Shown here one piece after another: positions 5,153-48,529 of a stretch of DNA of 64,000 nt. Under the pieces are notes generated by a model. The model was not told the origin of the DNA. It saw only the letters and a program-made list of their open reading frames with translations, and did not search any database. Location: the sequence record ON184125, one strand, 5' to 3'. Source of the stretch: Escherichia phage PC3. The position numbers and the translations under genes were made by a program. How positions within the stretch are numbered: the first letter of the stretch is position 1; every line of letters begins with the position of its first letter.

Positions 5153-7582
5153 ATGTCAAAGCTAAGTTTCCTCCAGTTCATGCAGGAAAGAGATCAGTTG
5201 GACGAAGCGTTCAACTCCGCTCCGTATGAGCTGACCATGGGTAAGAAGAACGCAGGCGATGTGTTCTTCACCTTCATCGACGAAGATGAAAAGGAATACC
5301 GTATTCAGTTCTATACCCCTCAGGGGCTGGGCAAGAGCGTTCGTCAGGTTTTCATCGGCCAGAAGCGCGGCTCCGTCTATCCTGACGCCATCGCTCGCTT
5401 CAAGAACCCAATGCGCGTTATCGCTTCCATGATCGAAGCGACCAAACAATTCATGGCGACTCCTCTGGGTAAGACCATCGATGGCTTTGCTGTCAACTTC
5501 TCTAAGAAAGCGCTGGATCGCGGTATGACCCTGATTCCTAAGATCATCCGCCAGTCCGGCCTGAAACAGAAGCTGAATGTCATGGACCTGACCTACGCGC
5601 CTGTCCCCGACCGTGGTTATGTGTGGTTGGTCCGCAAGGGTAAAGATCCGGCTCAGGTATTCGACGGTCCGAAGATGCAGGGCATCACCTGGGATGATCC
5701 AGACAAGGTCGGTGACGTTCCTGAGCAGCCAGTTGTACCAGCAGGTTCGGACAGAAATAACCCAGCCAACATTGTCGGTTCTGGAACTGCTGTTATTGAT
5801 GCCAAACGACTTGGTGCTCGGGAAGTAAACGTGGAACGATTCAAAAACGGTGTTCGCATGCGTTCTCAAAACGGTGACGTCGACATCAGTATTTCCGACC
5901 CAGACTTTTCAAATGCAGCAAGTGCGACTGATGCTGCCACAGCCTCTGTTGTGGTCAAGAACGGGCGTTACGAAGGTGCCATCAATTCAAAGCGCAAGAT
6001 TGCTCGCATCTCGAACGAGCAGGGTACTGAATGGGATATCATCGGTGTCAACGGGGAAACCCTTGTCTCTATCAAGTTGAACAAAGTGTCTAAATCCGCA
6101 TCGGATTCGACCGAGAGTACAACCAGTGTTGATCAATTACGTGACAGCGGTTTCATCGCTCGTGTTCTGGGTATCATTGATACCCACGTTGGGCTGGACA
6201 CTTCTATTCTTCCTGGTGAGAACATCCGTCGTGTGGGCGCTGGTCGTTACACGACGGCAGGCGGGTTGGTTATCGTTGTCAACTTCACAAACGTCCTCGC
6301 TGGTTTCGTTCAATACTCAGTTTTCAGCGAAATTGCTGAAGAGAAGAGCGTGGCCAAAGGTAGCGCCCGTGACGTCGCCAATGCGGTAATTGCGTCCATC
6401 TTTGAGGTTGCCAAGACCCAGTACACTGGCGAATGGGAAATCGGAGCAGTGCAAACAAGCGCTCCATACCCTATCAAGGCCATCCGTCATTCTCAGGGCT
6501 GGGGATATGTAGAAACCGCAAACTGGACTCTGAAAGTGTCCGACGCTGTCCTGAATCGTGTGAAGCCAGGGAACACTGCTCTGCTGGAACTCATCAAAGA
6601 GCCTCCGCGTGGCAAGCACCCGCTGGAAATCATCCCAGAGAAGGGCGACAAGACCCTGATGCTGAAAGATCGTATTACCGGGGCCATCTATGGTTCTATC
6701 GACCTGAATGCCCAAGGCGCTGATCTGGTCAACTCTGGAACCCTGAATATACCAAGCAACGCCATGGTGTTTGGTGAGACTGTCAACGGTATGTCCATCA
6801 CTTGGTCTGGCGTCAATTTCCCGAAAACTGGGAAGTATGATGGTGCTGTATTGACCACGAATGTGACCTATTACTACGACAAAGGCAAAGTGGCGATCAC
6901 GCCTATTGTATCCAATAAAGGTCGTACCCTGAACAATCCGAAGACATATGAACTTACTTTGAAGAAAGATATTGTTCAGGCCGTGATCGATGAAATTTCT
7001 TCTAAAATGGAAATGATATCTCGGAATATACAAACTCTGAAAAGCACGTCGTATAATCCGAAACAAGTATTTTTGGACGACATTTCTGTTGACAACAACG
7101 GTTCAGTCCTTTGGCGCGGGTACGACATGGCGGATCGCCGCACTAATGAATTTATGTTGGGTATCCTGTCCAAAGAAACCGAGAGACTGGAGAAAGAGTC
7201 GGGTACTGCGAAGAAGACTGGTGCCGACCTTGCGGCATACGCCGACTCCATCCGCGACAACGCACCAAAAGGCCGCGACCTGGATTGGCAGATCTATGCA
7301 AGCCGTGATGGTCAGACTCTGAACGTGGACTGGGATATCACCTTCCGCCGCAACACAACTGAAGGGGCATATCGCGAGTTCAAATCTCAGATTGACCGCG
7401 CCAACCAGTACCTGCAGACTCTGTACCGGGATGCGAAGTCCAAGGGTTACAACCCGACTGAACCAAACCTGATGACTCTGGATAGCGCCCAGCAGTCTGA
7501 CCAGTGGGCACGAGACTACGGGGAAGGCGCATACAGCGAGTACGAGCAGTCCCTGGGTGGCAACATGCAGATTAAGATCTGA
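5153..7582 (+). CDS. large hypothetical protein (809 aa)
   Basis: Long uninterrupted ORF with SD AGGAG 8 nt upstream of ATG; flanked by terminators on both sides; no family recognised. Confidence 0.8.
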   Translation: MSKLSFLQFMQERDQLDEAFNSAPYELTMGKKNAGDVFFTFIDEDEKEYRIQFYTPQGLGKSVRQVFIGQKRGSVYPDAIARFKNPMRVIASMIEATKQFMATPLGKTIDGFAVNFSKKALDRGMTLIPKIIRQSGLKQKLNVMDLTYAPVPDRGYVWLVRKGKDPAQVFDGPKMQGITWDDPDKVGDVPEQPVVPAGSDRNNPANIVGSGTAVIDAKRLGAREVNVERFKNGVRMRSQNGDVDISISDPDFSNAASATDAATASVVVKNGRYEGAINSKRKIARISNEQGTEWDIIGVNGETLVSIKLNKVSKSASDSTESTTSVDQLRDSGFIARVLGIIDTHVGLDTSILPGENIRRVGAGRYTTAGGLVIVVNFTNVLAGFVQYSVFSEIAEEKSVAKGSARDVANAVIASIFEVAKTQYTGEWEIGAVQTSAPYPIKAIRHSQGWGYVETANWTLKVSDAVLNRVKPGNTALLELIKEPPRGKHPLEIIPEKGDKTLMLKDRITGAIYGSIDLNAQGADLVNSGTLNIPSNAMVFGETVNGMSITWSGVNFPKTGKYDGAVLTTNVTYYYDKGKVAITPIVSNKGRTLNNPKTYELTLKKDIVQAVIDEISSKMEMISRNIQTLKSTSYNPKQVFLDDISVDNNGSVLWRGYDMADRRTNEFMLGILSKETERLEKESGTAKKTGADLAAYADSIRDNAPKGRDLDWQIYASRDGQTLNVDWDITFRRNTTEGAYREFKSQIDRANQYLQTLYRDAKSKGYNPTEPNLMTLDSAQQSDQWARDYGEGAYSEYEQSLGGNMQIKI

Positions 7583-7589
7583 TCATCGA

Positions 7590-7607
7590 AAGCCCCTTCG
7601 GGGGCTT
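7590..7607 (+). other. stable hairpin with UUCG tetraloop
   Basis: AAGCCCC-ttcg-GGGGCTT perfect 7 bp stem directly after stop of the 809 aa gene; 3' arm overlaps TATAAATA box. Confidence 0.6.
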
Positions 7608-7614
7608 ATAAATA
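7607..7614 (+). promoter_or_regulatory. T4-type late promoter box TATAAATA
   Basis: Exact TATAAATA 23 nt upstream of ATG 7638; consensus of T4 late (gp55-dependent) promoters from established knowledge. Confidence 0.5.
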
Positions 7615-7637
7615 ACTGAAATCCCGAGGAGATTAAG

Positions 7638-7943
7638 ATGAAACCGTTTATCGAATATTTTAAAGAACAAGCCGCTAAACCTCAGACCCATGCTGGTGTC
7701 CAGGGTAAGACCGTATCCATCACCAAGCAAGCTGACGGCACTCAGTGGTGCTCCGGTGCTACCGTGACCCAGATCACCCCTGACAATCAGGCGGATGTCT
7801 ACAACCTGGAGTTAACCAACGGCAACACTATCAAGGTGAAACTGACCCCAGACCAGACTCACGGTATCTCCCAAGGTCAGGAAGTCGTTGCTGTCCATGA
7901 CGGTTTCGAATTCTTCTTTGGCAAGTCTGCCGACAAAGACTAA
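7638..7943 (+). CDS. hypothetical small protein, probably late-expressed
   Basis: 101 aa; SD GAGGAG upstream; TATAAATA box upstream. Confidence 0.65.
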   Translation: MKPFIEYFKEQAAKPQTHAGVQGKTVSITKQADGTQWCSGATVTQITPDNQADVYNLELTNGNTIKVKLTPDQTHGISQGQEVVAVHDGFEFFFGKSADKD

Positions 7944-7983
7944 GTGAAACCATCAAGATGACTCTGGTCAAACAGTGATTACA

Positions 7984-8014
7984 ATCCCCCTAAATACAGG
8001 GGGATTTCTTTTTC
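7984..8014 (+). terminator. rho-independent terminator
   Basis: ATCCCCC-taaataca-GGGGGAT hairpin followed by TTCTTTTT. Confidence 0.7.
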
Positions 8015-8028
8015 TGAGGAAACAAATC

Positions 8029-8382
8029 ATGGTTAACGCGAGTATTTTCATCAACCGTGGACTGCTTGCTATAGCCCACTCTCATGCCTTGCACTTCGTT
8101 ACAACGTCCTATGCCAAGCACAAGGCACTCGGGGAGTTCTACGGGGAACTGGAGGGCTTGCTGGACACGTTTACCGAAGCATACATCGGTGCTGGTGGTC
8201 AGTATGTTCCATCATTCGAGAATATCAAATTGTACAACCCAGACCCTATCTCCTATATTAACAGTGTGGTGATAGACGTCGATGGCATCTACAAGCAGTG
8301 TGACTCCCACCTTCAGAGCACTCTTGACGATATCAAGACACTGTGTTATCAGACGATCTACAAACTGAAGCAGCTGTCGTAA
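8029..8382 (+). CDS. hypothetical protein
   Basis: 117 aa from ATG with SD GAGGAAAC upstream (track ORF 7975 would include the terminator). Confidence 0.55.
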   Translation: MVNASIFINRGLLAIAHSHALHFVTTSYAKHKALGEFYGELEGLLDTFTEAYIGAGGQYVPSFENIKLYNPDPISYINSVVIDVDGIYKQCDSHLQSTLDDIKTLCYQTIYKLKQLS

Positions 8383-8406
8383 GTCAATACGAAATAAAGG
8401 CATATA

Positions 8407-8450
8407 ATTTTGCTCATTATTCACCGAAAGGAAAGGACAATGAGCAAAAT
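8407..8450 (+). repeat. 11 bp perfect inverted repeat enclosing an SD-like sequence and start codon of a mini-ORF
   Basis: ATTTTGCTCAT ... ATGAGCAAAAT; loop contains AAAGGAAAGGA. Confidence 0.6.
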
Positions 8451-8526
8451 CTTTATCCCGTCACATGCGCAGCTACATGAATCTCTTGGACAACTTCGCC
8501 CACTTCGAGCACAACACGGCTGGTAA
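8440..8526 (+). CDS. possible mini-ORF (28 aa)
   Basis: ATG in 3' arm of the inverted repeat, MSKIFIPSHAQLHESLGQLRPLRAQHGW*; speculative. Confidence 0.2.
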   Translation: MSKIFIPSHAQLHESLGQLRPLRAQHGW

Positions 8527-8626
8527 ACAAATATTTTGTATAGAGGGCTTGTCGACCACTGTGTATAGCTCAAAGTCGTGATGTAGACTATACTGTGACC
8601 GAAGTGTTCCAGAGGCAGAAGATCTA

Positions 8627-9685
8627 ATGAAATTTCTTGATGAACAATTCATAAATTACGTTGCTCCCAGACTCGATAAATTCAAGTGGGAGCGCGTTGG
8701 TGCTGTCGCAAACTTCCGTTGTCCCCTGTGTGGAGATTCTCTCAAAAGTGCTAATAAGCGACGCGGTTATTTTTTCTTCGATCGAGATAATGACTGCTTC
8801 CGGTTTAAATGTCACAATTGCCATAACATGAATGGCTGGTCATTTGAGTTCTGGCTGAAGAAGTTCGACGAACGCCTCTCAACAGAGTACAACATGGAGA
8901 AGTTCCGTCTGCTGGGTGATACGTCGGGCAGACCACTTCCTTCCCTGAAGCCGTTGCCAAAGCTGACACAGACCGCCCGTATTGGCTCAGTGGCGGCGAA
9001 ACGCGACGAGAGCCTCCTCGGCAATATGCTACGGCTTGATCTGCTACCGCCTGACCATAAGGCTCGACAGTACGTACAGTGGCGTGGACTGCCGGAGAGC
9101 GCTTTGTCCCTCCTGTATTACACACAGCACTTCCGCCAGGATCTACTCCAGTTCGAAACGAACCCTGAGAAGCAGCTGAAAATTCCCGATGACGAGCGCC
9201 TGGTAATCCCATTCTGGACTCAGGATGGTCGCATGAAGATCGTTCAGGGGCGTGCATTCGACAAGAATGCGACACTGCGCTACGCAACAGTCAAGCCCAA
9301 GGATGAAGACACTAAGGTGTATGGTGAAGACCGGGTGAACATTCACAAGACCAAGCTGGTTGTGGAAGGTCCGATTGACAGCCTGTTCCTACCCAACTGT
9401 CTTGCATCGGCCGACGCTGATCTACTGAGCGTGAAGGGTGACATTTATATCCCTGATAATCAGTACCGGAACCCGCAGGTGTGTGACAGTATTCAGAAGA
9501 TGATAGATAAAGGTGTCAAAGTTGTACTGTTCCCACCAGACGTTCCTTGGAAGGATATCAACGACATGGTCATGCCATCAAAGGGCAACATGTCCATACA
9601 AGACCTCCTGAAACTGATCGCCAAGAACGTTTACCAAGGTATGGCTGCATCATTACAATTCGCTGAACTGAGGAAAGTGCGATGA
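8627..9685 (+). CDS. DNA primase (T4 gp61-like)
   Basis: 352 aa; zinc-ribbon CPLCGDS...CHNCHN near N-terminus, central RLVIPFW...QGRAFDK and VEGPIDSLF segments matching my recollection of T4 gp61. Confidence 0.8.
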   Translation: MKFLDEQFINYVAPRLDKFKWERVGAVANFRCPLCGDSLKSANKRRGYFFFDRDNDCFRFKCHNCHNMNGWSFEFWLKKFDERLSTEYNMEKFRLLGDTSGRPLPSLKPLPKLTQTARIGSVAAKRDESLLGNMLRLDLLPPDHKARQYVQWRGLPESALSLLYYTQHFRQDLLQFETNPEKQLKIPDDERLVIPFWTQDGRMKIVQGRAFDKNATLRYATVKPKDEDTKVYGEDRVNIHKTKLVVEGPIDSLFLPNCLASADADLLSVKGDIYIPDNQYRNPQVCDSIQKMIDKGVKVVLFPPDVPWKDINDMVMPSKGNMSIQDLLKLIAKNVYQGMAASLQFAELRKVR

Positions 9686-29047: not shown

Positions 29048-29065
29048 ATTTAAGTTCAGAAACTG

Positions 29066-29100
29066 TTCAATAGATGAAGGGGTTGCTATAATAGCAGCTC
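29066..29100 (+). promoter_or_regulatory. promoter-like element TTCAAT-N15-TATAAT within hairpin, upstream of nucleotide-modification operon
   Basis: TTCAATAG...GGGGTTGC-TATAATA-GCAGCTCC (stem with G-U pairs) then TTTTGTTT. Confidence 0.5.
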
Positions 29101-29122
29101 CTTTTGTTTATCGGAGCAGTTT

Positions 29123-29782
29123 ATGTCCTACTCCCTGAAGGGGCTGATGAAGCGCCCCGTCCACACATTCTTTAAACCACCCGTCGTAAAGGGGATCTAC
29201 CCAGCACGAGGGCAAATCTACTACGTCAAAGGCTCCAATGGTAGCGGTAAATCCACTGTGCCGTCTCAGCTGGCGGAGAGGGATCCTCAGGCGTATGTCG
29301 TGACCCATAACGGCAAGGTAATGCTGACTGTCTGTCCTTCGTTCAACGTGGTCTGTATCGGTAAATATGACAAGTCGAAGTCCAAGGGGGTTGATTCCCT
29401 GAAGGACACTGAGCAGATGTTGTTCGCGTTGTCTATTGCTGACCAACCAGAATACTTGAAATATGATGTGATTTTCGAAGGTATCATTCCATCCACATTA
29501 TTGAGTTCTTGGATCCCCCGCCTGACACGCCCACCACGTGAATTGGTTGTGCTCTTTATGGACACTCCCCTTGAAACGTGTATCTCCCGCGTTAAATCAC
29601 GTAACGGCGGTGTGGACTTCAATGAAAGTCTGGTGGTCGAGAAGTGGGAGAGAGTTCATGACCATCGTCAACGACATAAAGACTTGTTCCCTACGGTAGC
29701 TGCGGGTATGATGAAGTCTCACGGCCTAACGGTAGACCAGGCTGTGATGGCATTCCTCTGTCGTGATTTTGGGAGTATCTGA
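29123..29782 (+). CDS. P-loop kinase, candidate 5-hydroxymethyl-dU DNA kinase-like
   Basis: 219 aa; Walker A GSNGSGKST near N-terminus; sits directly upstream of and overlapping the ThyA homolog. Confidence 0.55.
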   Translation: MSYSLKGLMKRPVHTFFKPPVVKGIYPARGQIYYVKGSNGSGKSTVPSQLAERDPQAYVVTHNGKVMLTVCPSFNVVCIGKYDKSKSKGVDSLKDTEQMLFALSIADQPEYLKYDVIFEGIIPSTLLSSWIPRLTRPPRELVVLFMDTPLETCISRVKSRNGGVDFNESLVVEKWERVHDHRQRHKDLFPTVAAGMMKSHGLTVDQAVMAFLCRDFGSI

Positions 29783-30828
29783 TGGAAATCAAAGCAATTA
29801 ACAACAATGACATGCTGAAGCAGGCTGTCTTGGCTATCCGTGAATTCGGGATCGAATCTGATCCTGGTAATGCTGAAATAAATACTGATAGCACCCGCTT
29901 CCTTGATGGCGTGACCATAACCGTCGCCGACATCCGTGACCGCTGGCTATCCGTTGAAGGTCGTAACTCATCGGCTATCGCTGCCATCGGCGAGACCTTC
30001 TGGGTTCTGTCCGGGCGCGATGACGTTCGCTTCCTGTCCCGCGTATTACCTCGCGCTGCTAACTTTTCGGATGATGGGGTAACATGGCGAGCTGCTTATG
30101 GTCCGCGTCTGTACGCCCATGGCCAGCTGGATAGCGTTATCAACCGCCTGCGCAAGAACCCAAACACTCGCCAGGCGTACCTCACCATCTATGACCCGGC
30201 TCTAGATTCGGATGCTGGTCTGGCGAAGTTCAGCGAGAGCGGCGAAGCAAAGACTAAGGACATGGTGTGTAACCTGGCTCTGTTGTTCGCCATCGTTGAA
30301 GGTCGTCTGAACCTGACGGTCATCAACCGCTCACAGGATGTTCTGTGGGGGATGAGTTCAATCAACTTCATTGAGTTCTCTATTCTTCAGGAAGTGATTG
30401 CTCGGGTGCTGGACGTTGACGTCGGTCAGTACAAGCTATTCTCTAACAATCTTCATTACTACAACAATGAAGTCAGCCAGAAGCAGCTTGGCAAGATTAC
30501 CAAAGACACAAAAGTCACTGGTGGTTTCATCAACTCCATGATTCACTTCACGAACGTGACCAACCAGAACCATATCCGCAATCTGTTCACTGGTGTGCTT
30601 CATCACTGTGATATCGGCAGCCCGTGGGAAACTGTGGTCGCCCACCTGAAGGAATATGATGCTGATCGTGGCCTGATTGTACAGATGGCGTACTGTCTGC
30701 ACTGCAAACTGAACGAAAAGCTCATTAACCTGGACCTGATTCAGGATCATGGCTTGAACACCGCGCTCACCCATTCTCCGGTTGACCGCAAGATCGTTGA
30801 TCCTAAGTTCCTGGAAGGTGTAGTATGA
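29782..30828 (+). CDS. thymidylate synthase family protein (possible pyrimidine hydroxymethylase)
   Basis: 348 aa with ThyA-like segments (YGPRLYAHGQLDSVINRLRKNPNTRQAYLTIYDP); longer than canonical ThyA. Confidence 0.7.
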   Translation: MEIKAINNNDMLKQAVLAIREFGIESDPGNAEINTDSTRFLDGVTITVADIRDRWLSVEGRNSSAIAAIGETFWVLSGRDDVRFLSRVLPRAANFSDDGVTWRAAYGPRLYAHGQLDSVINRLRKNPNTRQAYLTIYDPALDSDAGLAKFSESGEAKTKDMVCNLALLFAIVEGRLNLTVINRSQDVLWGMSSINFIEFSILQEVIARVLDVDVGQYKLFSNNLHYYNNEVSQKQLGKITKDTKVTGGFINSMIHFTNVTNQNHIRNLFTGVLHHCDIGSPWETVVAHLKEYDADRGLIVQMAYCLHCKLNEKLINLDLIQDHGLNTALTHSPVDRKIVDPKFLEGVV

Positions 30829-31394
30829 TGTACCCAAATCTTGAATTCTTTACGGGGCGCAAACGCTCCGGCAAGGACTTCTGTTTGGAGTCCCTGATCA
30901 GTTACCACCACTTACAGGGTGATATGGACATACAGCGCCTTTCTTTCTCTGATGAACTGCGCCGTGTAGCCAACTACATCTACCCATGGCTCCCAGCGGA
31001 GGTAGAGGATGCCGTGAAGGACGTTCCTTACGTGCACCCTGATAACCCCAAGGGCTTAACTCCACGGCAGATCTGGCTTCATCTAGGCAGCGATACGGGC
31101 TTGCGTTATGTACAGCCTGATCTGTTCCTGGCATTCTTCAAGCGCTTCCAGCTTCCTCTGGTAGAGCAGAACCCCCACGTCCATTATATCGTGAGCGATC
31201 TGCGTACCCCTCAGGAATATGAATGGGCGCTGAGTACGAAATGTCCTATCACCCGTATTTCAAAGGCCGACCGTGCTGGTATCATAGAGGACGATATAGA
31301 GGCTTTCATTGACCAAATGAAAGTGGACTACGAATTCCTCAATCCATTTGATGGTTGGGAACCGTTCGTTAAATTCTACGGAGAACGTAAATGA
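30825..31394 (+). CDS. deoxynucleoside monophosphate kinase (T4 gp1-like)
   Basis: 189 aa; GRKRSGKDF resembles T4 dNMP kinase P-loop. Confidence 0.7.
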   Translation: MMYPNLEFFTGRKRSGKDFCLESLISYHHLQGDMDIQRLSFSDELRRVANYIYPWLPAEVEDAVKDVPYVHPDNPKGLTPRQIWLHLGSDTGLRYVQPDLFLAFFKRFQLPLVEQNPHVHYIVSDLRTPQEYEWALSTKCPITRISKADRAGIIEDDIEAFIDQMKVDYEFLNPFDGWEPFVKFYGERK

Positions 31395-31945
31395 TCACAG
31401 CAGGGCATATCAAAAGCCTGCTCGAACTCCAAAAGGCCACCAACGTGGCCTACTTTGGGGAAGAGTGGAAGAATGTATGGAGTCAGAACGCAGTCATCAA
31501 CTCTATCTATCGTGAGTGGGCAGAGTTCCTTGATGAAACCACCCGTGACTGGAAGGTCTATGGCAACGACATCGGGTTTGACCATACGAACGCAGTTTAT
31601 GAACTGGTGGACGTGGTACACTTCATGTTGTGCTTCATCCTTGTGGACCGCACCAAAGGTGAGATCGAAGAAGAATTTGAAGTCCTTAGTAATCGCGAAT
31701 TCACCCCATCTGCTTTGGGTGTTGTAGGGCATCACAATGTTACGTACCGCCTTGGGCAATTCATGAACGATCCTTGCGTTGAGACTCTCATGTTCTTCCT
31801 GTCGTCTGCGTGTTCTTATATGGAGATCGACATTGAGACTTACATACTGGCACACAAACGCAAGAACGATCGCAATCGCCTGCGTGCTGCTGGTGGCGCG
31901 GATTACGATAAGTCTGCAGAAACCCCTCTGACCCTGGAGTTCTAA
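31391..31945 (+). CDS. dCTPase/dUTPase-like nucleotide pyrophosphatase (T4 gp56-like)
   Basis: 184 aa; ELVDVVHFMLCFIL resembles recalled gp56 ELVDIFHFVLNMF. Confidence 0.6.
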   Translation: MITAGHIKSLLELQKATNVAYFGEEWKNVWSQNAVINSIYREWAEFLDETTRDWKVYGNDIGFDHTNAVYELVDVVHFMLCFILVDRTKGEIEEEFEVLSNREFTPSALGVVGHHNVTYRLGQFMNDPCVETLMFFLSSACSYMEIDIETYILAHKRKNDRNRLRAAGGADYDKSAETPLTLEF

Positions 31946-32487
31946 TGTTTACAGTCGTCGTTTCATATCATGCAGACAACGCGGCGAACGCATCCGCTAA
32001 TTTCGCCGAGCACATCATCGGCGGCGGTCATAATGTATTCCTTACTGAATACACCAGGCCTGTTAAACCGGGCGACGGTCTTTCGGCGACTGTTACGCAT
32101 AAGATCGCCAGCGAGCAACCAGAGTCTCTGTTCAGGATGATCGAAGAGTATGCCGGTGGTGGCATCAAGATACCAGATGAACTGGTAGACGTCTATTTTG
32201 AAGGCTCGATCTATTACATCCACGCTATGCCAAAGGATGTAACCATTGAACAGATGATGTATATCCTGAATATAGCACTGAACACTGCGTGCATCAACCG
32301 CACGAACTACAACAATCTGCGCAATATGTACCTAACCGACCGGCATAATGACGATGCGTCACTTGTTGAGACAATGTCCCTGAAGAGCATCCAAGAGGCG
32401 GTTAACATTTTGTCCCAGAAGGTTATGGGTGTAGACTTACTAACGACGATTAACAACAAAGAGGAAGTGAAATGGCCAGTTCATTAA
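31945..32487 (+). CDS. hypothetical protein
   Basis: 180 aa, TAATG overlap with preceding gene, inside the nucleotide operon. Confidence 0.55.
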   Translation: MFTVVVSYHADNAANASANFAEHIIGGGHNVFLTEYTRPVKPGDGLSATVTHKIASEQPESLFRMIEEYAGGGIKIPDELVDVYFEGSIYYIHAMPKDVTIEQMMYILNIALNTACINRTNYNNLRNMYLTDRHNDDASLVETMSLKSIQEAVNILSQKVMGVDLLTTINNKEEVKWPVH

Positions 32488-33557
32488 TGGACCGCATGCT
32501 GAAGGTTGCTAAGAAACACGATGACCAGGCTTCAGTGCTGTCCAAATCCGACGCTCTGGAACCGTCTATCATCTGTTCTACTGGTATTCCCCTGATCGAT
32601 ATCGCATGGTCTGGGCGTATTGACGGTGGTCTGATCTCCGGTATCAAGATGATGGTGGGTGATTCCCGTACCTTCAAAACGATGTTCGGTCTGGTGGACG
32701 TCAAGGCGTACATGGACAAGTTCCCTGATGCTATCTGCGTCTTTGCGGACTCAGAAAAGGGTGCCAACGCCGATTACTGGACCTCTATGGGCATTGACAT
32801 GGACCGCGTCCTGTACGTACCGATCGACAACGTTGAACAGACCAAGATCCGCTTGCTGCAGATCCTCCAGGAAGTCAAGAAAGGCGACCATGTTATAATC
32901 TTCATCGACTCTATCAGCCAACTACCCTCCACCAAGGAAGTTGAAGATGCGATCAAAGGGAACGACACTCAAGACATGACCCGCGCCCGTGCCCTTAACA
33001 GCTTCTGGCGTGTCATGACTCCCGAAATCAACAGCAAAAATCTCGTGTGTGTTTGGATCAACTCCTATTACGATGAGATCGGCAACCAATATGCCGAGCC
33101 TAACATCAAAGGCGGCAAACAGGGCTTCTTATCCTCCAACTTGATCTGGTTTATCACCCGTTCTCAGGTGAAGGAAGACAAAGATCTGCTGGGTTGGAAC
33201 TTCAACATAAGCATCATGAAAGGTCGCCATGTCAAAGAGAAAGCCAAGCTCCCTGTGACGGTACTGTACAACGGTGGTATTGATCGCTGGAGCGGCCTGC
33301 TTGAGATCGCTCGTGCTCTGGGTTATGTTGATATGCCGTCTTCCGGTTGGTATGTGCGTACAGCCAAGGGTGGTTTCGATCCTGAGAAGGAAAAGAAATA
33401 TCAGAAGCGTCAGATGGATGATGATTTCTGGTATCCGCTGCTGGAGAATGTCAACTTCGCCGATGACGTGAAGAAAATGTTCGGTGTTTCTAACGGTACT
33501 GTTATGCCTGCTAACATGCTGGAGCAAATGGACCATGTTATCAACACAAGCGAATAA
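32472..33557 (+). CDS. uvsX: RecA-like recombinase UvsX
   Basis: 361 aa; N-terminus and core (ISGIKMMVGDSRTFKTMFGL, VIIFIDSISQLPSTKEVEDA, TRARALNSFWRVMTP) align by eye with T4 UvsX. Confidence 0.9.
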   Translation: MASSLMDRMLKVAKKHDDQASVLSKSDALEPSIICSTGIPLIDIAWSGRIDGGLISGIKMMVGDSRTFKTMFGLVDVKAYMDKFPDAICVFADSEKGANADYWTSMGIDMDRVLYVPIDNVEQTKIRLLQILQEVKKGDHVIIFIDSISQLPSTKEVEDAIKGNDTQDMTRARALNSFWRVMTPEINSKNLVCVWINSYYDEIGNQYAEPNIKGGKQGFLSSNLIWFITRSQVKEDKDLLGWNFNISIMKGRHVKEKAKLPVTVLYNGGIDRWSGLLEIARALGYVDMPSSGWYVRTAKGGFDPEKEKKYQKRQMDDDFWYPLLENVNFADDVKKMFGVSNGTVMPANMLEQMDHVINTSE

Positions 33558-33864
33558 CAGTGGAGGGGGAGGAGACTCCCCCAATAACTACACAATCATC
33601 GACCCTGGTGCTGATCAGCTGGCGATCATCAAGATCACTTCTGGCAAATTCCGTGGTGTTCAATTCCGGTTCGGCAAGGTGGCCATCAACGAAGTGGACT
33701 GCGAACCCCGCCTGTCTTTCGTGACTGATATATTGAAGAAACCATTGCGTCTGATGTTTGTGAATTTGAAAGAAAATGACTTGTTCACTGAGGTGTCAGG
33801 GGATATCCTTGTAGACCTCATGCAGCGTAATGCTCAGGAATATAATAAATTTTTGGTGGGGTAA
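33535..33864 (+). CDS. possible small protein between uvsX and helicase (start uncertain)
   Basis: Open frame continuous to 33864; only upstream ATG (33535) overlaps uvsX and the hairpin would lie inside its 5' coding region. Confidence 0.3.
   Translation: MLSTQANNSGGGGDSPNNYTIIDPGADQLAIIKITSGKFRGVQFRFGKVAINEVDCEPRLSFVTDILKKPLRLMFVNLKENDLFTEVSGDILVDLMQRNAQEYNKFLVG
33565..33582 (+). other. hairpin immediately after uvsX stop
   Basis: GGGGGAG-gaga-CTCCCCC perfect 7 bp stem. Confidence 0.6.
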
Positions 33865-33871
33865 GTGGCCA

Positions 33872-35296
33872 ATGTTACTCGAATCTGTCGTGCTTTCACA
33901 GTTGATTTACAATGAAGATTACCAAAGAAAGATCCTGCCGTACCTGAAAGCCGATTATTTTGACAACGAAGGCGAAAAGGTCATCTTTGGTCTGATTGAC
34001 AGTTATACCTCAGAGTACAATGCCCGCCCGTCTGTCGAAGCACTATCTATAATTCTTGAACGGACAAAGCTGAACGAATATGTGTTTGACCAGGCGGTAT
34101 CTGCCCTGGAGAACATCAACGACAACACCTTCAATGAAGAGTGGCTGGCGAAGGAAACCGAGGCTTGGGCGCGACAAAAGGCCGTACACAACGCAATCAA
34201 GACCGCCGTTAACATCTACGGTGACGAGAAGCGCAAGGACGAGATGAACAACATCCCGACCATGTTGCAGGAAGCCCTGGCTATCCGGTTTGATTCATAT
34301 CTCGGTCACATCTATTGGGAGATGGCGGCAGAGCAGTATGACCACATGAACTCCAACGAGGCCAAGATCCCGTTCGCAGTTGAGATCTTCAATAAGGCGA
34401 CACGTGGTGGCGTTGGTAAGAAGACACTGAACATCGTAACAGGTGCGATCAACGCAGGTAAGACCACAACGCTGATTGACCTGACCGCAGGGTACTCGGA
34501 GCAGGGGCTGAACGTCTTTGTCTTCACCCTTGAAGTGGCCGAGAACGTCTGGCGACACCGTCTTGATGCCCGTATCATGCGTCGCGACTTTGAGTCTTTA
34601 GAGAAACTCACAAGGCACGAGTATATTGCAACGATAGAGAAGCTCCGCAGTCGCCAAGATGGTGCGCCCAAGGGTGATATCGTCATCAAGGAATATCCTT
34701 CCGGTACTGGACACACAGGTTTATTCCGCCGCGATATCCTTGAGTACATCCAGGCAACTGGTCGTGCTCCTGATGTTATCGTTATTGACTATCTTGGCGA
34801 AGCTGCTTCCTCGCGCCTGCCTGCCCACCTGATGCAGAACACGAACGTCTATTACACGTCTGTGGCTCGTGAGTTTCGTGCGCTGGGATTTGAGTTTGAT
34901 GTCCCTGTATGGACTGGTATGCAGTTCAATCGTGAGAATCAGAATAGCACTGATGGTGGAATCAGTGATTTGGCAGATGCTATCGGTATTCCGAAGGTGG
35001 CCGACTTCATCATGGCATTCTATGCTCCTGACGAACTGGCGGCGGTCAAGAAAGCCCGAGCCTCAATACTCAAGAACCGTTATGCCAACAAGCAGAAGCT
35101 GAAATCATTCCTGTTTGGTATGGACCAAGACAAACAGATCCTGTTTGACCTGGACTGGAATGAAGTTAAGAAGGACCTGACTGAGGCTGAGGCCAAATAT
35201 GTCGAAAACGTACACATCAAACATGACCTCAACAAGTCCGGAGCTGCTGCCAGCGATGAGCAGAAAGCCCAAACGGTCAATAATTGGAAATTCTAG
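33872..35296 (+). CDS. replicative DNA helicase (T4 gp41/DnaB-like)
   Basis: 474 aa from Met 15 of track ORF; Walker A GAINAGKTT, DnaB-like layout. Confidence 0.85.
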   Translation: MLLESVVLSQLIYNEDYQRKILPYLKADYFDNEGEKVIFGLIDSYTSEYNARPSVEALSIILERTKLNEYVFDQAVSALENINDNTFNEEWLAKETEAWARQKAVHNAIKTAVNIYGDEKRKDEMNNIPTMLQEALAIRFDSYLGHIYWEMAAEQYDHMNSNEAKIPFAVEIFNKATRGGVGKKTLNIVTGAINAGKTTTLIDLTAGYSEQGLNVFVFTLEVAENVWRHRLDARIMRRDFESLEKLTRHEYIATIEKLRSRQDGAPKGDIVIKEYPSGTGHTGLFRRDILEYIQATGRAPDVIVIDYLGEAASSRLPAHLMQNTNVYYTSVAREFRALGFEFDVPVWTGMQFNRENQNSTDGGISDLADAIGIPKVADFIMAFYAPDELAAVKKARASILKNRYANKQKLKSFLFGMDQDKQILFDLDWNEVKKDLTEAEAKYVENVHIKHDLNKSGAAASDEQKAQTVNNWKF

Positions 35297-37923: not shown

Positions 37924-38265
37924 ATGACTACACTCGTAGAAACATTATTCCCAGGCTGCGTGCTTGGGCGCGGCGGATCCGAAGCCAACGGGCTACCGAT
38001 TGACGTCGAACCTCAGAACTGTGTTATTGTTGACAAGTTTCACGACAACCATTATGTCCTGAACAATCGTCGTGACCACTATCTTGTTTCCGTAGGAGAT
38101 TCTTTGGTCAGTCTGCGCATCTGCAAGGCTATGCCAGGATCCGGCTATGGAGCATTCGCCTATATTCACAGCGTGTCAAATGACGAGCTGGGTAAAGAAG
38201 CTCTGGTTGAAAAATTCAAGAGTTGGAAGGATTCTTTCACCTCAATTGAACCTCCGAAGAAATAA
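37924..38265 (+). CDS. hypothetical protein
   Basis: 113 aa, AAGGAAC SD-like sequence upstream. Confidence 0.6.
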   Translation: MTTLVETLFPGCVLGRGGSEANGLPIDVEPQNCVIVDKFHDNHYVLNNRRDHYLVSVGDSLVSLRICKAMPGSGYGAFAYIHSVSNDELGKEALVEKFKSWKDSFTSIEPPKK

Positions 38266-38336
38266 CTGAGGACTACACACTGACCTCATTATCGGTCAGG
38301 CAAAATCTCACACCCGCCAATAATCTATTGAAGTCC

Positions 38337-38369
38337 CCAGGGTTATAATAGCAGCACATATAACCCTGG
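38337..38369 (+). repeat. 11 bp perfect inverted repeat containing TATAAT
   Basis: CCAGGGTTATA-atagcagcaca-TATAACCCTGG ending 9 nt before ligase ATG. Confidence 0.8.
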
Positions 38370-38378
38370 AGACACCAC

Positions 38379-39803
38379 ATGATCCCTATCCTTGAAATAG
38401 TCCACCGACTTCGCGAAACCAAAGGCAGCAATGCGAAGAAAGCTGTGCTGACCGAAGCATTCAAGAACAACCCAGACTTGGCAGACTTCCTGCAATATGT
38501 CTATGACCCAATGACGTCGTTCTATCGGACTGAGTTGAAGCTCAGCGCGTACCCTCGCATGCTCGTCCGTGAGAAGACTGATGACATCAGCGAAGTCTAT
38601 GACGTCCTCGACCAGATGGCACAGCGCCTTGTCGGTGGCCAAAAGGCTGATGCCCTGTTGGCCTCTGTCGCCCTGAAGATGGATCCCCAATACCACGAAC
38701 TCATTCAGATGATCCTAGACCGTGATATCAAGGCGGGTATCGCAGAGAAGGGCATCAACGCTGCATTCAACGCCGCCGGAGGCACTGGACGCCTGATCAA
38801 CATTCTTCCGTATCATCGTTATGACAACATGACGATTGACCTGCTGAAGAAGATGGACTTCAAGCGCGGCGTCTACAGCCAGCTGAAGTCAGACGGTATG
38901 TTCGCCAACATCATATGTCGGTACAATAAAGAGCCTGAGATTCGCTCTCGCTCCGGTTCCCTTATCGCAGGTGGTTCGGTTGATAACCTTTCACTGGTGT
39001 TCAAAGACCTGATCTACGATGCGGGGATTGGTGAGAGTGTGTTCCATGGTGAACTTCTCGTTGTTGACCTCAAGTCTAATACCATCCTGCCTCGTGCTGT
39101 CGGTAACGGTAAACTCAACAGCGTGATTCAGACAGGAGAACCCCTAGAAGATCGTTATCGGGTGATCTACCGGGTGTGGGATGTTGTGCCGTATGAACAA
39201 TGGTTCAACGCCCAGCGCGTGGATACCCCGTATGAGCGCCGCTTCGATATTATCCAGCAACTGTTTGATGAAGACGACGGTCTGGTTCAGGTTCAAGAAA
39301 CCCGCGTTGTTCACTCATTTGCCGAAGCCGTCGACCACTTCAAAGACGCGCTGGCTCGCAAAGAAGAAGGCACGATATGTAAGGCCGCCGACATGCCTTG
39401 GGAAGATGGGACTTCTTCTGAAGGTCTGAAGCTGAAGATGGAGGTTGAGTGTGACCTTGAAATCGTGGGCTTCAACGAGGCCGACAAGAAGGGTAAACAC
39501 GCCAAGACTTTTGGCTCACTGATTTGTAAAACTTCCGATGGCTTGCTTGTTGTTGGTGTATCAGGGATCTCAGATGAGCTGAGACGCCATATGTGGGAGA
39601 ACCAGGGCGACTACATTGGCAAGATCGCCGCAGTGCTCTCCAATGGCGTACAGGATAAGACAGATGATGCGATGAAGTCTTTGTTCCTACCTCGCCTTGT
39701 AGAAGTCCGCATTGACAAGAAAGTGGCCAACACACTGGATGAAGTCTATGCGATACAGAAAGCGTACATTGAAAACATCGCATTCCTGTTGGAGTCTGCA
39801 TAA
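38379..39803 (+). CDS. ATP-dependent DNA ligase
   Basis: 474 aa; adenylation motif I KSDG in SQLKSDGMF. Confidence 0.85.
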   Translation: MIPILEIVHRLRETKGSNAKKAVLTEAFKNNPDLADFLQYVYDPMTSFYRTELKLSAYPRMLVREKTDDISEVYDVLDQMAQRLVGGQKADALLASVALKMDPQYHELIQMILDRDIKAGIAEKGINAAFNAAGGTGRLINILPYHRYDNMTIDLLKKMDFKRGVYSQLKSDGMFANIICRYNKEPEIRSRSGSLIAGGSVDNLSLVFKDLIYDAGIGESVFHGELLVVDLKSNTILPRAVGNGKLNSVIQTGEPLEDRYRVIYRVWDVVPYEQWFNAQRVDTPYERRFDIIQQLFDEDDGLVQVQETRVVHSFAEAVDHFKDALARKEEGTICKAADMPWEDGTSSEGLKLKMEVECDLEIVGFNEADKKGKHAKTFGSLICKTSDGLLVVGVSGISDELRRHMWENQGDYIGKIAAVLSNGVQDKTDDAMKSLFLPRLVEVRIDKKVANTLDEVYAIQKAYIENIAFLLESA

Positions 39804-40280: not shown

Positions 40281-40497
40281 CAAGAAGTACATGTACAAGG
40301 TTCTGCTGAGCCTCGGGGTGTCACAATCTGGGCTGGCTCGTTTATTGGATTGTTCTAATGTTGTGAACTACTGGGCGAAGGGTTATCGTGTTGTCCCCCG
40401 CTCCTTCCGTCGCTTCATCCTGGTGTTACAGTTCATCAAGAAGAAAGGGCTGATGGAAGAGTTATTGCAATTTATTAAAGAAGAGGAACGCAAATGA
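40246..40497 (+). CDS. helix-turn-helix DNA-binding protein
   Basis: 83 aa; LSLGVSQSGLARLLDCSNVVNYWAKG resembles XRE-type HTH. Confidence 0.5.
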   Translation: MSLRMKELPVNDKKYMYKVLLSLGVSQSGLARLLDCSNVVNYWAKGYRVVPRSFRRFILVLQFIKKKGLMEELLQFIKEEERK

Positions 40498-41189
40498 ACT
40501 ATACCCGAGCGTTGGTTTCTATCCTTGAAAGGTCTTATTCTCGCAATCTGATTGGGTATTCAGAAAGACACCATAAAGAACCCAGGAGCTTGGGAGGGAC
40601 TGATACTGCGGAGAATATTGCTGTTCTAACTGCTCGGGAACATTTCATAGTTCACAAACTTTTGGCCAAGATATTCAGTATGTCTCCTGCATACGTGAAA
40701 ATCTTTTCTTTGATGAGAAATATATCAAAATCACAAACTTCACGCCAATACGAAGAGTTCGCTCTCAGAAAATGGGAAAGGGTGAAGACAGCTAACAGCA
40801 CTCCAGAGTTTAAACAAAAATGCAGTGAAAGATTCAAGGGGGTGGCGTTATCCCGTGAACACAGATCGAAAATTTCCGATTCGCTGATGGGCAGACCCAA
40901 ATCAGATTCACAACGTTCCAAATTAAAACAAATCCATTCAAAGCCTTGGGAAAGTCCAAATGCGACACATACCCGCAAATATTGGGCTTTGGCAGGAATA
41001 TTCTATGATTGGTGGGTAGCCGATGGTGCCAGGTTAGGCATATGTCGAAATGTAACGATGGTCAAGGAATTGGGGGTGGATCGCGCCGAAATGACCGCCA
41101 AAAGTTGCATACAAAGATTTCAAAAAGGATGGGTGCCGTACAATGATGAGAATTGGGTTAAGTTTTTCGAGGAAATGAAAAATGCGTGA
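40494..41189 (+). CDS. HNH homing endonuclease
   Basis: 231 aa; ERHHKEPRSLGGTDTAENIAVLTAREHFIVH HNH motif; region looks more AT-rich than surrounding genes. Confidence 0.7.
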   Translation: MNYTRALVSILERSYSRNLIGYSERHHKEPRSLGGTDTAENIAVLTAREHFIVHKLLAKIFSMSPAYVKIFSLMRNISKSQTSRQYEEFALRKWERVKTANSTPEFKQKCSERFKGVALSREHRSKISDSLMGRPKSDSQRSKLKQIHSKPWESPNATHTRKYWALAGIFYDWWVADGARLGICRNVTMVKELGVDRAEMTAKSCIQRFQKGWVPYNDENWVKFFEEMKNA

Positions 41190-45756: not shown

Positions 45757-46725
45757 TTAGAAGCTATCGCCTTCGGTTTCAAAGCGCCCTTTGTGTAGAG
45801 GCTCCAGTTCGATGAAGGTCATGTCAACCTGCGTGGACACGATACCATCATCTTTGTGAACCGCGTATGAACTGTCCGGCGTCTCGTTGACGAACATGTT
45901 GGAAAGTACACAAGTGGAGATGCGGTGCAGCCACTGGTTACGCTCCCCATTGACCATGAACGTAATGTCGAATGTTGAAGGATGCAAGTAAAACGCGCTG
46001 GAATTCTTGTTGTACTTGTACTCTGGGTACATGTGCATCTTGAACATGCGGATGATCTCACGGACCATCTTGGCTTCCTTCTGAGATCGCGGCGTGAATT
46101 TGAATGTAAATGGAATCTCACGGTTGCGAACACCCTGGAAGATCATCTCCACATATGGGTTGGTCATGGTGCCTGTGAACAACTCAAGGGTGTCATGGGC
46201 GTTAATGCTCGGCAGGAATGGAATAGCCTCCGACGCAGATTGGATAGCCTTGGTGGCAGCGAATCGCCCCATCTCCTTCCCGACGTTGAGCGCATCACCC
46301 AGTTTAAACTGAGTCATGTCTTGGGCGGCGCGGGAAAGGAACTGTGCTCCCATACCAGCCAACCCCAGCTCGCTACCGTTCCAGCCAACACCATAGTTGG
46401 TTGTAATGTACTCGGGCATACAAAGTACGATAGACTCGTTTGAACGAACGTGACGCGCCCATGCATATTTGGTGATGGAACCAGACTTGGACCCATAGAC
46501 CACAGGAGTATTCCCCAGAGGGTTCTGTATTGGGTTCTCGATAGTCTGAGTAGCCGTGTTGCCATAAGATGAACCGGAGATACGGTTGATGTTGAATAGG
46601 ACATAGTGTCCTAAAGTCTTACCCCCAGTAACGTCTAGGGGATAAGACAATTGCTTCTGAGCCTGGGACAATCCCTTCGTGTTCAGAACCTTGATCTTAT
46701 CGATTGTCTTCTTGAAGTCGGCCAT
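45757..46725 (-). CDS. baseplate/tail-tube associated protein (gp48/gp54-like, tentative)
   Basis: 322 aa, first gene of the minus-strand structural operon. Confidence 0.45.
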   Translation of the reverse strand: MADFKKTIDKIKVLNTKGLSQAQKQLSYPLDVTGGKTLGHYVLFNINRISGSSYGNTATQTIENPIQNPLGNTPVVYGSKSGSITKYAWARHVRSNESIVLCMPEYITTNYGVGWNGSELGLAGMGAQFLSRAAQDMTQFKLGDALNVGKEMGRFAATKAIQSASEAIPFLPSINAHDTLELFTGTMTNPYVEMIFQGVRNREIPFTFKFTPRSQKEAKMVREIIRMFKMHMYPEYKYNKNSSAFYLHPSTFDITFMVNGERNQWLHRISTCVLSNMFVNETPDSSYAVHKDDGIVSTQVDMTFIELEPLHKGRFETEGDSF

Positions 46726-46775
46726 GGTCTCAGCCCTTAAATAGATAGAGTGTTATGGCTATTTAGGACTAGATT

Positions 46776-47390
46776 ATGAGCAACTATCTTCAGGGGAAGT
46801 ACACCCCAGTTAATCCCAAGAAGTATCAGGGGAATGTGAATAACATCATCTTCCGCTCTTCGCTGGAGTTGGTGGCTTTCAAGTTCTGTGATATGAACTC
46901 CGCGATAGTGAAGTGGTCTAGTGAGGAGACCGTAATCCCTTACATTTCCCCAGTCGACGGGCGCACCCATCGTTACTTCATGGACCTCAAAGTCTGGACG
47001 CGCCGTGAAGGGCAAGAGGAACTACAGGTCACCCTCATTGAGATCAAGCCCAAAGACCAGATCAAGCAGCCGAAGAAGACTCCGAACATGAAGGAGTCGA
47101 CATTCAACAATGCGATGCGAACCTGGTTGGTCAATTCTGCCAAGTGGGAGGCCACCCGCGAACTGTGTGCCAAGAAGAACTGGAAGTTCATTATATGGAC
47201 TGAAGAGCATCTTGTTCCGGGTGAAGATCCGGATGTTCGTAAACAGTTTGAGCTGAAGTCGAAAAAGAAACGGGATATGGAGATGCAAGATCGCCGACAT
47301 GCCGAACGTGTCAGGGTGCTGAAGGAACAGATGCGGAAGGAGATTAAACCCGCCCCAACGGAGCGGGATGATGGACTGCTCTTACCTTAA
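46776..47390 (+). CDS. hypothetical protein with highly charged C-terminus
   Basis: 204 aa, divergent from the baseplate operon; upstream imperfect palindrome related to the one at 22400. Confidence 0.6.
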   Translation: MSNYLQGKYTPVNPKKYQGNVNNIIFRSSLELVAFKFCDMNSAIVKWSSEETVIPYISPVDGRTHRYFMDLKVWTRREGQEELQVTLIEIKPKDQIKQPKKTPNMKESTFNNAMRTWLVNSAKWEATRELCAKKNWKFIIWTEEHLVPGEDPDVRKQFELKSKKKRDMEMQDRRHAERVRVLKEQMRKEIKPAPTERDDGLLLP

Positions 47391-48019: not shown

Positions 48020-48529
48020 TTATTTGTCAGGGTTCACTAAAACAGGGGTGGATACCAGTTCGCCGCTCTTCACAGAATGCTGGACTACAACAATCTGATC
48101 GACCATGCGATATACTTCAATCCCAGCAGCCAGCATTTCAATAATGCCGTCTATGATACGATATGGTCGGTCATAGAACACTTTAGCGATCTTGCCACTG
48201 TCGATAATACGACGGGTGCACTCTGGGCATGGACTATGAGTGACAAACATCACCAGGCCACAACAGTCTTCAGTGTGCTGGGGGAGTTTGCTCAGAGCAT
48301 TCTCCTCGGCGTGGATAACACCCACCGATACCAGTTGACCGTCTACTTCCTTCTCACAGACATTAGGAGCGCCAGGAGCAGTCCCGTTCCAACCGATAGA
48401 CAGGGGCTGGTCAACACGCGGGTCAACGATAACACAGCCGACCTTCAGGCGCTGGGCATAGCTGGACAGAGCGTATGCATGAGCCGATCGCATATGCGCA
48501 AACAACATACGGGGTTTGATAGTCATCAC
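48020..48529 (-). CDS. dCMP deaminase
   Basis: 169 aa; zinc-binding HAEENAL and PCPEC motifs of cytidine/dCMP deaminases. Confidence 0.8.
   Translation of the reverse strand: MMTIKPRMLFAHMRSAHAYALSSYAQRLKVGCVIVDPRVDQPLSIGWNGTAPGAPNVCEKEVDGQLVSVGVIHAEENALSKLPQHTEDCCGLVMFVTHSPCPECTRRIIDSGKIAKVFYDRPYRIIDGIIEMLAAGIEVYRMVDQIVVVQHSVKSGELVSTPVLVNPDK

Follow-up and report, generated by a model that had tools for sequence, protein, structure and literature searches.

The window analysed here, a 64,000-nucleotide (nt) stretch of phage DNA presented under Escherichia phage PC3 (record ON184125), contains at 29123-31945 a block of four overlapping genes encoding a P-loop kinase, a homolog of thymidylate synthase (TS; ThyA), a putative deoxynucleoside monophosphate (dNMP) kinase and an all-alpha nucleoside triphosphatase (NTPase). 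Here we report that this block is very probably the 5-hydroxymethyl-deoxyuridine (5-hmdU) and thymidine-hypermodification module of the Ackermannviridae, gene-for-gene orthologous to orf67-66-65-63 of phage ViI (Vi01). An earlier reading from the letters of this DNA (hereafter the sequence-only reading) had proposed a thymidine-hypermodification-type operon fitting the published logic of 5-hydroxymethyl-pyrimidine synthesis, and the kinase, the hydroxymethylase and the synteny with ViI support that proposal. The window corresponds to nt 64001-128000 of the PH4 record ON184126.1 (Ackermannviridae, Aglimvirinae), with a lone mismatch at 56266 over 64,000 nt. Genome-wide statements below refer to the full PH4 genome ON184126.1, and window coordinates refer to the 64,000-nt stretch.

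Organization of the gene block

The block comprises the following genes, with product lengths in amino acids (aa):

29123-29782, + strand: gene 1, assigned as a 5-hmdU DNA kinase, 219 aa
29782-30828, + strand: gene 2, ThyA homolog, 348 aa
30825-31394, + strand: gene 3, putative dNMP kinase, 189 aa
31391-31945, + strand: gene 4, predicted all-alpha NTPase, 184 aa

All four open reading frames (ORFs) lie where the sequence-only reading had placed them and are translationally coupled, as it had described, with the junctions TGATG, ATGA and ATGA in this order. The P-loop kinase (GSNGSGKST) stands directly upstream of the 348-aa ThyA-family gene, again as read. We regard the four genes as real: 267 phage records carry the block in conserved form, and ViI shares both its gene order and its overlaps. 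The proposed four-gene unit holds for the overlaps among these genes, but the chain is longer than that: one TAATG joins the NTPase gene to a downstream ACT-like gene, and another joins the ACT-like gene to uvsX, so that the coupling runs on to the latter. Scanning the + strand for terminator-like sites gave none between 29104 and 35296, where the gp41-type helicase gene ends.

Gene 1 is a predicted 5-hmdU DNA kinase

The gene 1 product matches the Pfam family PF18748 (HMUDK_HMUD1, clade 1 of the 5-hmdU DNA kinases) with E=3.6e-109 and 363.2 bits, against a cut-off of 27. The match is full-length, with residues 14-208 spanning model positions 1-195 of 196. The protein is 88% identical over 219 aa to ViI gp67 (orf00067, YP_004327432), and its Walker A motif, GSNGSGKST (residues 37-45), is identical in gp67. 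It also scores 53 bits (phmmer) against gp54 of Pseudomonas phage M6. ViI gp67, ViI gp243 and M6 gp54 move the ATP gamma-phosphate onto 5-hmdU in DNA (Lee et al. 2021, PMC8989533). The comparison with characterized 5-hmdU DNA kinases that the sequence-only reading had suggested thus places the protein squarely among them, and it does not group with unrelated P-loop kinases. By orthology to gp67, gene 1 is a 5-hmdU DNA kinase (5-HMUDK), predicted to phosphorylate the 5-hydroxymethyl group of 5-hmdU within DNA to give 5-PmdU.

Database labels say otherwise. PHROG 800 and RefSeq name this kinase family 'terminase small subunit', a label that also sits on the proven kinases ViI gp67 (38203-38865 of the ViI stretch compared) and M6 gp54 (3707-4270 of the M6 stretch compared), and other records call the protein 'thymidylate kinase' or 'hypothetical protein'. 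We rejected the terminase label, which is an annotation error that spread: both of the proteins with demonstrated kinase activity carry it, and the small terminase of ViI is encoded by a different gene, adjoining that for the large terminase.

Gene 2 groups with hydroxymethylases

The gene 2 product belongs to the thymidylate synthase family (PF00303, 2e-15), and alignments show that the catalytic residues E71, Y106, R130, C163, R183, S184, D186, H225 and Y227 are kept and invariant, among them the nucleophilic Cys, the Arg residues that bind phosphate and the counterparts of Glu58, Tyr94, His207 and Tyr209. N195, which is invariant in 54 relatives, aligns with N177 of E. coli ThyA and with D179 of T4 gp42. 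The asparagine points to uracil as the probable substrate, since the T4 dCMP hydroxymethylase has Asp at this position.

When compared with ThyA on the one hand and with dCMP/dUMP hydroxymethylases on the other, the protein falls with the hydroxymethylases by sequence, by curated cut-offs and by its MilA-like model. In phmmer searches it scored 103 bits against the M6 homolog and 95 bits against that of Bacillus phage SP8, compared with 29-32 bits for E. coli ThyA and 11-12 bits for T4 gp42. Phage relatives outside the Ackermannviridae among the records listed at E<=1e-8 include M6 and SP8, which are known to contain 5-hmdU or to hypermodify their DNA, together with Vibrio, Bordetella and other phages of unchecked DNA chemistry. 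The protein lies below every NCBIfam thymidylate-synthase equivalog cut-off (35-55 bits versus 108-427), its best scores of 55.4, 52.8, 51.9, 38.9 and 38.0 standing against cut-offs of 327, 174.55, 327, 108.35 and 405, respectively. The closest sequence in the Protein Data Bank (PDB) is MilA, a CMP 5-hydroxymethylase (E=5e-18), with E. coli TS at about 3e-6.

Structure prediction gave the same grouping. For the predicted model (pLDDT 93.8), MilA is also the best fold match and fits the whole length, including a C-terminal helical extension, with TM-scores of 0.70-0.81, whereas canonical TS structures fit only the core (TMq 0.50-0.57). The extension covers approximately residues 245-348, about 100 aa, in place of the TS C-terminus. 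The region corresponding to E. coli Trp80/Trp83 reads A-NFSDD; within it, the clade shows no variation at S96, D97 and G99 and almost none at D98. In TS, Trp80/Trp83 and the C-terminal tail protect the intermediate with the exocyclic methylene and seal off the folate site. These shielding elements are lost here, and their loss would therefore fit resolution of the methylene intermediate by water. Searches of the PH4 genome by tblastn, with the enzymes of SP8 and M6, E. coli ThyA and T4 gp42 as queries, returned no second ThyA-type gene; ThyX was not searched for.

The sequence grouping, the curated cut-offs and the predicted structure together support gene 2 as a putative ThyA-superfamily dUMP hydroxymethylase, which would convert dUMP to 5-hmdUMP. 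Consistent with this assignment, the 'TS' proteins of CBA120, ViI and AG3 cluster with dUMP hydroxymethylases, and 3H-thymidine is not incorporated by CBA120 (Kutter et al. 2011, PMC3184105). By analogy, the absent uptake in CBA120 may be taken as indirect support for a 5-hmdUMP product.

Relatives of the hydroxymethylase also occur in bacterial genomes. In the actinobacterium Paenarthrobacter (7582-9086 of the stretches compared), the gene overlaps a Nuc_deoxyrib_tr gene of the MilB/BcmB N-glycosidase type, and the pair is followed by a major facilitator superfamily transporter gene and then by two ATP-grasp genes. This locus looks like a MilA/MilB-like cluster for a hydroxymethyl-pyrimidine nucleoside antibiotic, not like DNA modification; the neighbourhood is nonetheless a hydroxymethylase context and as such supports the hydroxymethylase reading. 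Further bacterial relatives were listed from Klebsiella, Rhizobium and Herbiconiux genomes.

Genes 3 and 4 and the distant dCMP deaminase

The sequence-only reading had called gene 3 a T4 gp1-like dNMP kinase. The kinship stands, as a remote and not a close one, and is visible only through PHROG and the predicted structure. The protein matches phrog_139 at 1.2e-47, the family that T4 gp1 joins at 1.8e-65; its P-loop, GRKRSGKD, follows the gp1-type pattern G-x-K-R-S-G-K-D (GVKRSGKD in T4 gp1); and the top PDB fold match of its model (pLDDT 87.3) is 1DEK, T4 gp1 itself (E=1.5e-6, TMq 0.56). Compared directly with T4 gp1, it scores 4.9 bits (phmmer). It has no match to PF21448 (DNMK) at E<=0.01, a family in which T4 gp1 scores 358 bits, and no match above the family cut-off in Pfam, none in NCBIfam and none in the PDB by sequence. 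With ViI 'dnk', it shares 91% identity. Gene 3 is thus predicted to encode a remote T4 gp1-type dNMP kinase converting 5-hmdUMP to 5-hmdUDP.

For gene 4, a gp56-like dCTP/dUTP pyrophosphatase had been proposed. Its product shares with T4 gp56 both PF08761 (dUTPase_2; 6e-9, 36.8 bits, cut-off 22.9) and phrog_173 (4.5e-40), has a weak PDB match to the Campylobacter dimeric dUTPase 1w2y, and contains the motif E42-x-x-E45 ... E71-x-x-D74, read in the sequence. As judged from these family matches, it is an all-alpha NTP pyrophosphohydrolase of the dUTPase/dCTPase family. The likeness to gp56 is again remote (5.8 bits pairwise), and the function is most likely that of a dUTPase, possibly also of a dTTPase, as Kutter et al. 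proposed in 2011 (PMC3184105). The protein is unlikely to act as a dCTPase, given that these phages do not replace cytosine (PMC3184105).

The sequence-only reading had added a dCMP deaminase elsewhere in the window:

48020-48529, - strand: dCMP deaminase ORF, matching phrog_174 and PF00383

This gene was confirmed by matches to phrog_174 (7e-53) and PF00383 (4e-16) and by 63% identity to the ViI dCMP deaminase; it lies on the minus strand, however, and is annotated as 48020-48526, the end at 48529 adding one codon. It is unlinked to the block, 16 kb away on the opposite strand, and is predicted to supply dUMP.

On the - strand at 57454-58035, the window also holds an ortholog (51% identity) of ViI orf11, annotated as 'MazG-like pyrophosphatase'. 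Its product has no Pfam match at E<=0.01 and is a second candidate cleanser of the nucleotide pool, as a dTTPase or dUTPase.

The remaining pathway genes in the PH4 genome

Orthologs of all five genes used to reconstitute the ViI base 5-(2-aminoethoxy)methyl-deoxyuridine (5-NeOmdU), namely gp67, gp160, gp226, gp243 and gp247, are present in the PH4 genome with their diagnostic Pfam domains. Besides the gp67 ortholog in the window, these are the following, all situated outside it (PH4 coordinates; identities to ViI from tblastn):

46034-47254: gp160 ortholog, aGPT-Pplase1, PF18723 (HMUDK_hel), 81%
134253-135461: gp247 ortholog, putative serine:DNA transferase, PF18724 (ADDT), 88%
145491-146765: gp226 ortholog, putative pyridoxal phosphate (PLP) decarboxylase, PALP (weak), 90%
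136037-137533, - strand: gp243 ortholog, kinase 2, PF18747 (HMUD2), 48%

The gp247 ortholog keeps 10 of 11 cysteines, and Lys92 of gp226 is kept as well. Kinase 2 occupies residues 202-497 of a 498-aa ORF annotated as 'homing endonuclease F-LimXI', the first 195 residues of which form a homing-endonuclease domain. Met194 and Met196 lie just ahead of the P-loop, and kinase 2 might also be translated alone. PHROG 15209, matched at full length, suggests that the fusion of homing endonuclease and kinase recurs in other phages. The genome further encodes a 5'(3')-deoxyribonucleotidase of the NT5C family, which is a candidate dTMPase.

The sequence-only reading had held that the resulting base and the completeness of the pathway cannot be read from sequence. 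This is true of the window alone; since each of the five ViI reconstitution genes has an ortholog in the PH4 genome, 5-NeOmdU can be predicted as the product in PH4 DNA. This 301-Da nucleoside has been measured in ViI, CBA120 and CBA6 (PMC5889632, PMC8989533), in Vibrio phage 1.255.O and in a Taipeivirus, where about 16% of thymidine is replaced (bioRxiv 10.64898/2026.05.19.726188), compared with roughly 40% in ViI (PMC5889632).

Proposed pathway

In the mechanism that we propose, the dCMP deaminase and the all-alpha NTPase would supply dUMP, and the NTPase, to judge from its family, would also keep dUTP, and perhaps dTTP, out of the DNA. Cys163 of the ThyA homolog would attack C6 of dUMP and take up a methylene group from methylenetetrahydrofolate (CH2-THF). 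The protein's homology to its SP8 and M6 counterparts and its MilA-like architecture suggest that water, and not hydride, would then resolve the exocyclic methylene to give 5-hmdUMP. The gp1-type dNMP kinase would produce 5-hmdUDP, a host nucleoside diphosphate kinase would presumably provide the triphosphate, and the phage polymerase would place 5-hmdU in the DNA instead of thymidine.

The subsequent steps would take place on the DNA polymer. Using ATP, 5-HMUDK would phosphorylate the hydroxymethyl group to yield 5-PmdU, as shown for the 88%-identical ViI gp67. The gp247 ortholog would then add L-serine through its side-chain oxygen to form O-SerT, and the PLP decarboxylase orthologous to gp226 would convert this product to 5-(2-aminoethoxy)methyl-deoxyuridine; both of these steps have been shown for ViI, and both genes lie outside the window. 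Any leftover 5-hmdU would end as thymidine (PMC5889632).

Points against this reading and alternative explanations

Several points weigh against the hypermodification module proposed here. The window itself contains only one post-replicative enzyme, the gp67 ortholog. The second kinase shares only 48% identity with ViI gp243, and a homing-endonuclease domain precedes it in frame. All catalytic residues of a true TS are also present in the ThyA homolog, and single residues cannot settle the choice between hydroxymethylase and methylase; in the literature examined we found no assay of any ViI-type ThyA homolog. The substrate ranges of the dNMP kinase and of the NTPase rest on inference. Finally, our literature search found no base measurement for PH4, any Agtrevirus, Limestonevirus or other Aglimvirinae.

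The alternative that survives best accepts hypermodification in the Aglimvirinae, with an end product, a replaced fraction of thymidine or a sequence context unlike those of ViI. The divergence and fusion of kinase 2 would fit such an outcome, as would the lower identities of the NTPase and the ACT-like protein to their ViI counterparts (56-61%); the extent of modification already varies within the family, from the roughly 40% of ViI to the roughly 16% of the Taipeivirus (PMC5889632; bioRxiv 10.64898/2026.05.19.726188), and the literature search yielded no Aglimvirinae value to set beside these. The serine transferase and the decarboxylase, which fix the chemistry, are nevertheless 88-90% identical to those of ViI, and no radical S-adenosylmethionine (SAM), flavin adenine dinucleotide (FAD)-dependent or acetyltransferase tailoring enzyme was seen among the genes examined. 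As a whole we judge this alternative improbable; the extent may well differ from that in ViI, and a different base is unlikely.

That the pathway ends at plain 5-hmdU, as in SPO1 and SP8, was the original proposal for CBA120, favoured by Kutter et al. in 2011 from restriction patterns (PMC3184105), and the window, with precursor enzymes and one kinase, would by itself look this way. A kinase acting on 5-hmdU in DNA would be purposeless without downstream transfer, however, and PH4 encodes an ADDT transferase and a PLP decarboxylase with 88-90% identity to the proven ViI enzymes and with catalytic residues kept. Moreover, the virion DNA of ViI, CBA120 and CBA6 contains 5-NeOmdU and no 5-hmdU (PMC5889632, PMC8989533). 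We give this possibility very little credence.

An ordinary thymidylate-supply operon, in which a thymidylate synthase, a thymidylate or other kinase and a dUTPase make dTTP for replication, is how most database annotations read the block: such labels stand in the GenBank and RefSeq entries of PH4 and related phages, and the PF00303 match, the complete set of TS catalytic residues and the matches to phrog_800 ('terminase small subunit') and phrog_761 ('thymidylate kinase') agree with those labels. On this view gene 1 would encode a 'hypothetical protein', a 'thymidylate kinase' or a 'terminase small subunit'. The supply-operon reading is already largely refuted, and we hold it to be highly improbable: the kinase has a full-length PF18748 match and is 88% identical to its ortholog gp67, whose action on 5-hmdU in DNA has been demonstrated (PMC8989533), the 'terminase' label sits on the proven gp67 and gp54 while the ViI small terminase is separate, the ThyA homolog reaches only 35-55 bits against TS cut-offs of 108-427 and groups with hydroxymethylases, and CBA120 lacks 3H-thymidine incorporation (PMC3184105).

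Leader hairpin, ACT-like protein and neighbouring genes

Three further features on the + strand flank the hypermodification block:

29060-29122, + strand: conserved leader hairpin, terminator-like site and RNA fold
31945-32487, + strand: ACT-like gene, PF24021
32487-33557, + strand: uvsX, annotated start 32487

The leader folds as RNA with -31.2 kcal/mol (z = -7.1), and 0 of 200 shuffles fold as well. Its core, at 29076-29104, was detected by the terminator scan and consists of a 13-bp stem followed by a T-run, and its outer stem would pair with the Shine-Dalgarno sequence of the kinase gene (GGAG, 29113-29116). Across 104 alignment columns, the leader matches the sequence preceding gp67 in ViI at about 90% identity, and the hairpin core is nearly invariant. 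Elsewhere in the 64-kb window, no copies of the element were found beyond chance. The hairpin delimits the coupled block on its 5' side, and it could act as a terminator, as an element of RNA stability or as a gate on translation. A TATAAT at 29088-29093, preceded by TG, resembles an extended -10 promoter element; it falls within the loop and stem of the strong conserved hairpin, however, and a sigma-70 scan made no call there, so that a promoter at this place is doubtful.

The ACT-like protein matches PF24021 (ACT_phage) at 3.5e-79, and its gene is coupled on both sides by TAATG. The protein was found only in the Ackermannviridae, and in each of the records listed its gene stands between the NTPase gene and uvsX; the protein has no sequence relative in the PDB and no homolog outside the family. 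The ACT-like gene is part of the transcription and translation unit, and any role of it in the pathway is conjectural. It is conceivable, if rather unlikely, that the ACT-like protein or the leader hairpin takes part in dTTP exclusion, in turning most of the 5-hmdU back into thymidine or in setting the hypermodified fraction and, relatedly, that the Aglimvirinae, whose kinase 2 has diverged and is fused to an endonuclease, differ from ViI in the fraction or the sequence context that they modify.

Homing-endonuclease genes are annotated in the window at 40494-41189, adjoining the gp59-type helicase-loader gene, and at 56627-57457, adjoining the gene for the topoisomerase II large subunit, and several more occur in the PH4 genome. 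The PH4 DNA polymerase is annotated as two coding sequences (139130-140758 and 141161-142594) with about 400 bp between them, whereas that of ViI is a single 2997-bp gene; the split could reflect an intron, an inserted element, or a split in assembly or annotation.

Comparison with known systems

The locus has already been described by Kutter et al. (2011) and by Lee et al. (2018 and 2021), and our analysis is a correct rediscovery that adds nothing scientific beyond those reports. Its value lies in annotation: PH4 and many of its relatives carry wrong labels for the 5-hmdU DNA kinase and for the hydroxymethylase ('thymidylate synthase'). With correct labels, those who use these phages in therapy or biocontrol would know that the DNA is probably hypermodified and probably resistant to many restriction enzymes, and would also be warned that it may behave oddly in sequencing and cloning.

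The closest characterized system is that of ViI, in which the order of the kinase, ThyA homolog, dnk, NTPase, ACT-like and uvsX genes is identical and the overlaps of 1, 4, 4 and 1 nt are the same. The identities are 88% for the kinase, 77% for the ThyA homolog, 91% for dnk, 61% for the NTPase and 56% for the ACT-like protein. The two phages differ in subfamily (Cvivirinae for ViI and Aglimvirinae for PH4) and in kinase 2, which in PH4 has diverged (48%) and stands behind a homing-endonuclease domain. Within the Aglimvirinae, Shigella phage Ag3, Salmonella phage SKML-39 and Dickeya phage LIMEstone carry the same genes in block DNA that is 89-92% identical. There is no difference of substance from these phages; PH4 is a later isolate with poorer labels ('hypothetical protein', 'thymidylate synthase', 'dUTP diphosphatase'). 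AG3, SKML-39 and LIMEstone appear among the 5-HMUDK phages in Table 1 and Fig. 2 of Lee et al. (2018, PMC5889632), who also reported that 5-HMUDK co-associates with the deoxyuridine hydroxymethyltransferase, and a 2024 review describes the modification genes as conserved across the Ackermannviridae (PMC11721090).

More distant systems share parts of the pathway. Pseudomonas phage M6, whose gp51-gp58 region serves 5-NedU, has a homologous kinase (gp54, 53 bits) and hydroxymethylase (gp58, 103 bits) encoded near each other, but M6 adds glycine and uses a radical-SAM isomerase. Among the Bacillus phages SP8 and SPO1, the SP8 hydroxymethylase is homologous (95 bits), whereas SP8 stops at 5-hmdU and is without the kinase. 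Outside the Ackermannviridae, the tblastn similarity ends near residue 245, and the C-terminal extensions of M6 gp58 and of the SP8 enzyme have no detectable similarity to that of PH4.

The T4 system follows the same logic: it combines an NTPase with a ThyA-fold hydroxymethylase and a dNMP kinase, and modifies the base at the polymer level after incorporation. In both phages the hydroxymethylase gene precedes uvsX, which is followed by a small gene and the gene 41 helicase (window 29782-35296 versus T4 nt 20612-26219), and the beta-glucosyltransferase gene adjoins gene 42 in T4 as the DNA kinase gene adjoins the hydroxymethylase gene in the window. T4 differs in modifying a cytosine base (Asp in gp42) as opposed to uracil (Asn195), in glucosylating the polymer where PH4 would phosphorylate it and then transfer an amino acid, and in its marginal sequence similarity (5-12 bits). 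MilA of the mildiomycin pathway (PDB 5b6d/5jnh), like the ThyA homolog, lacks the Trp80/Trp83 pair of E. coli TS as well as the C-terminus found in TS; by contrast, MilA acts on CMP, has Asp at the specificity position and serves antibiotic biosynthesis, and the two proteins share about 21% identity.

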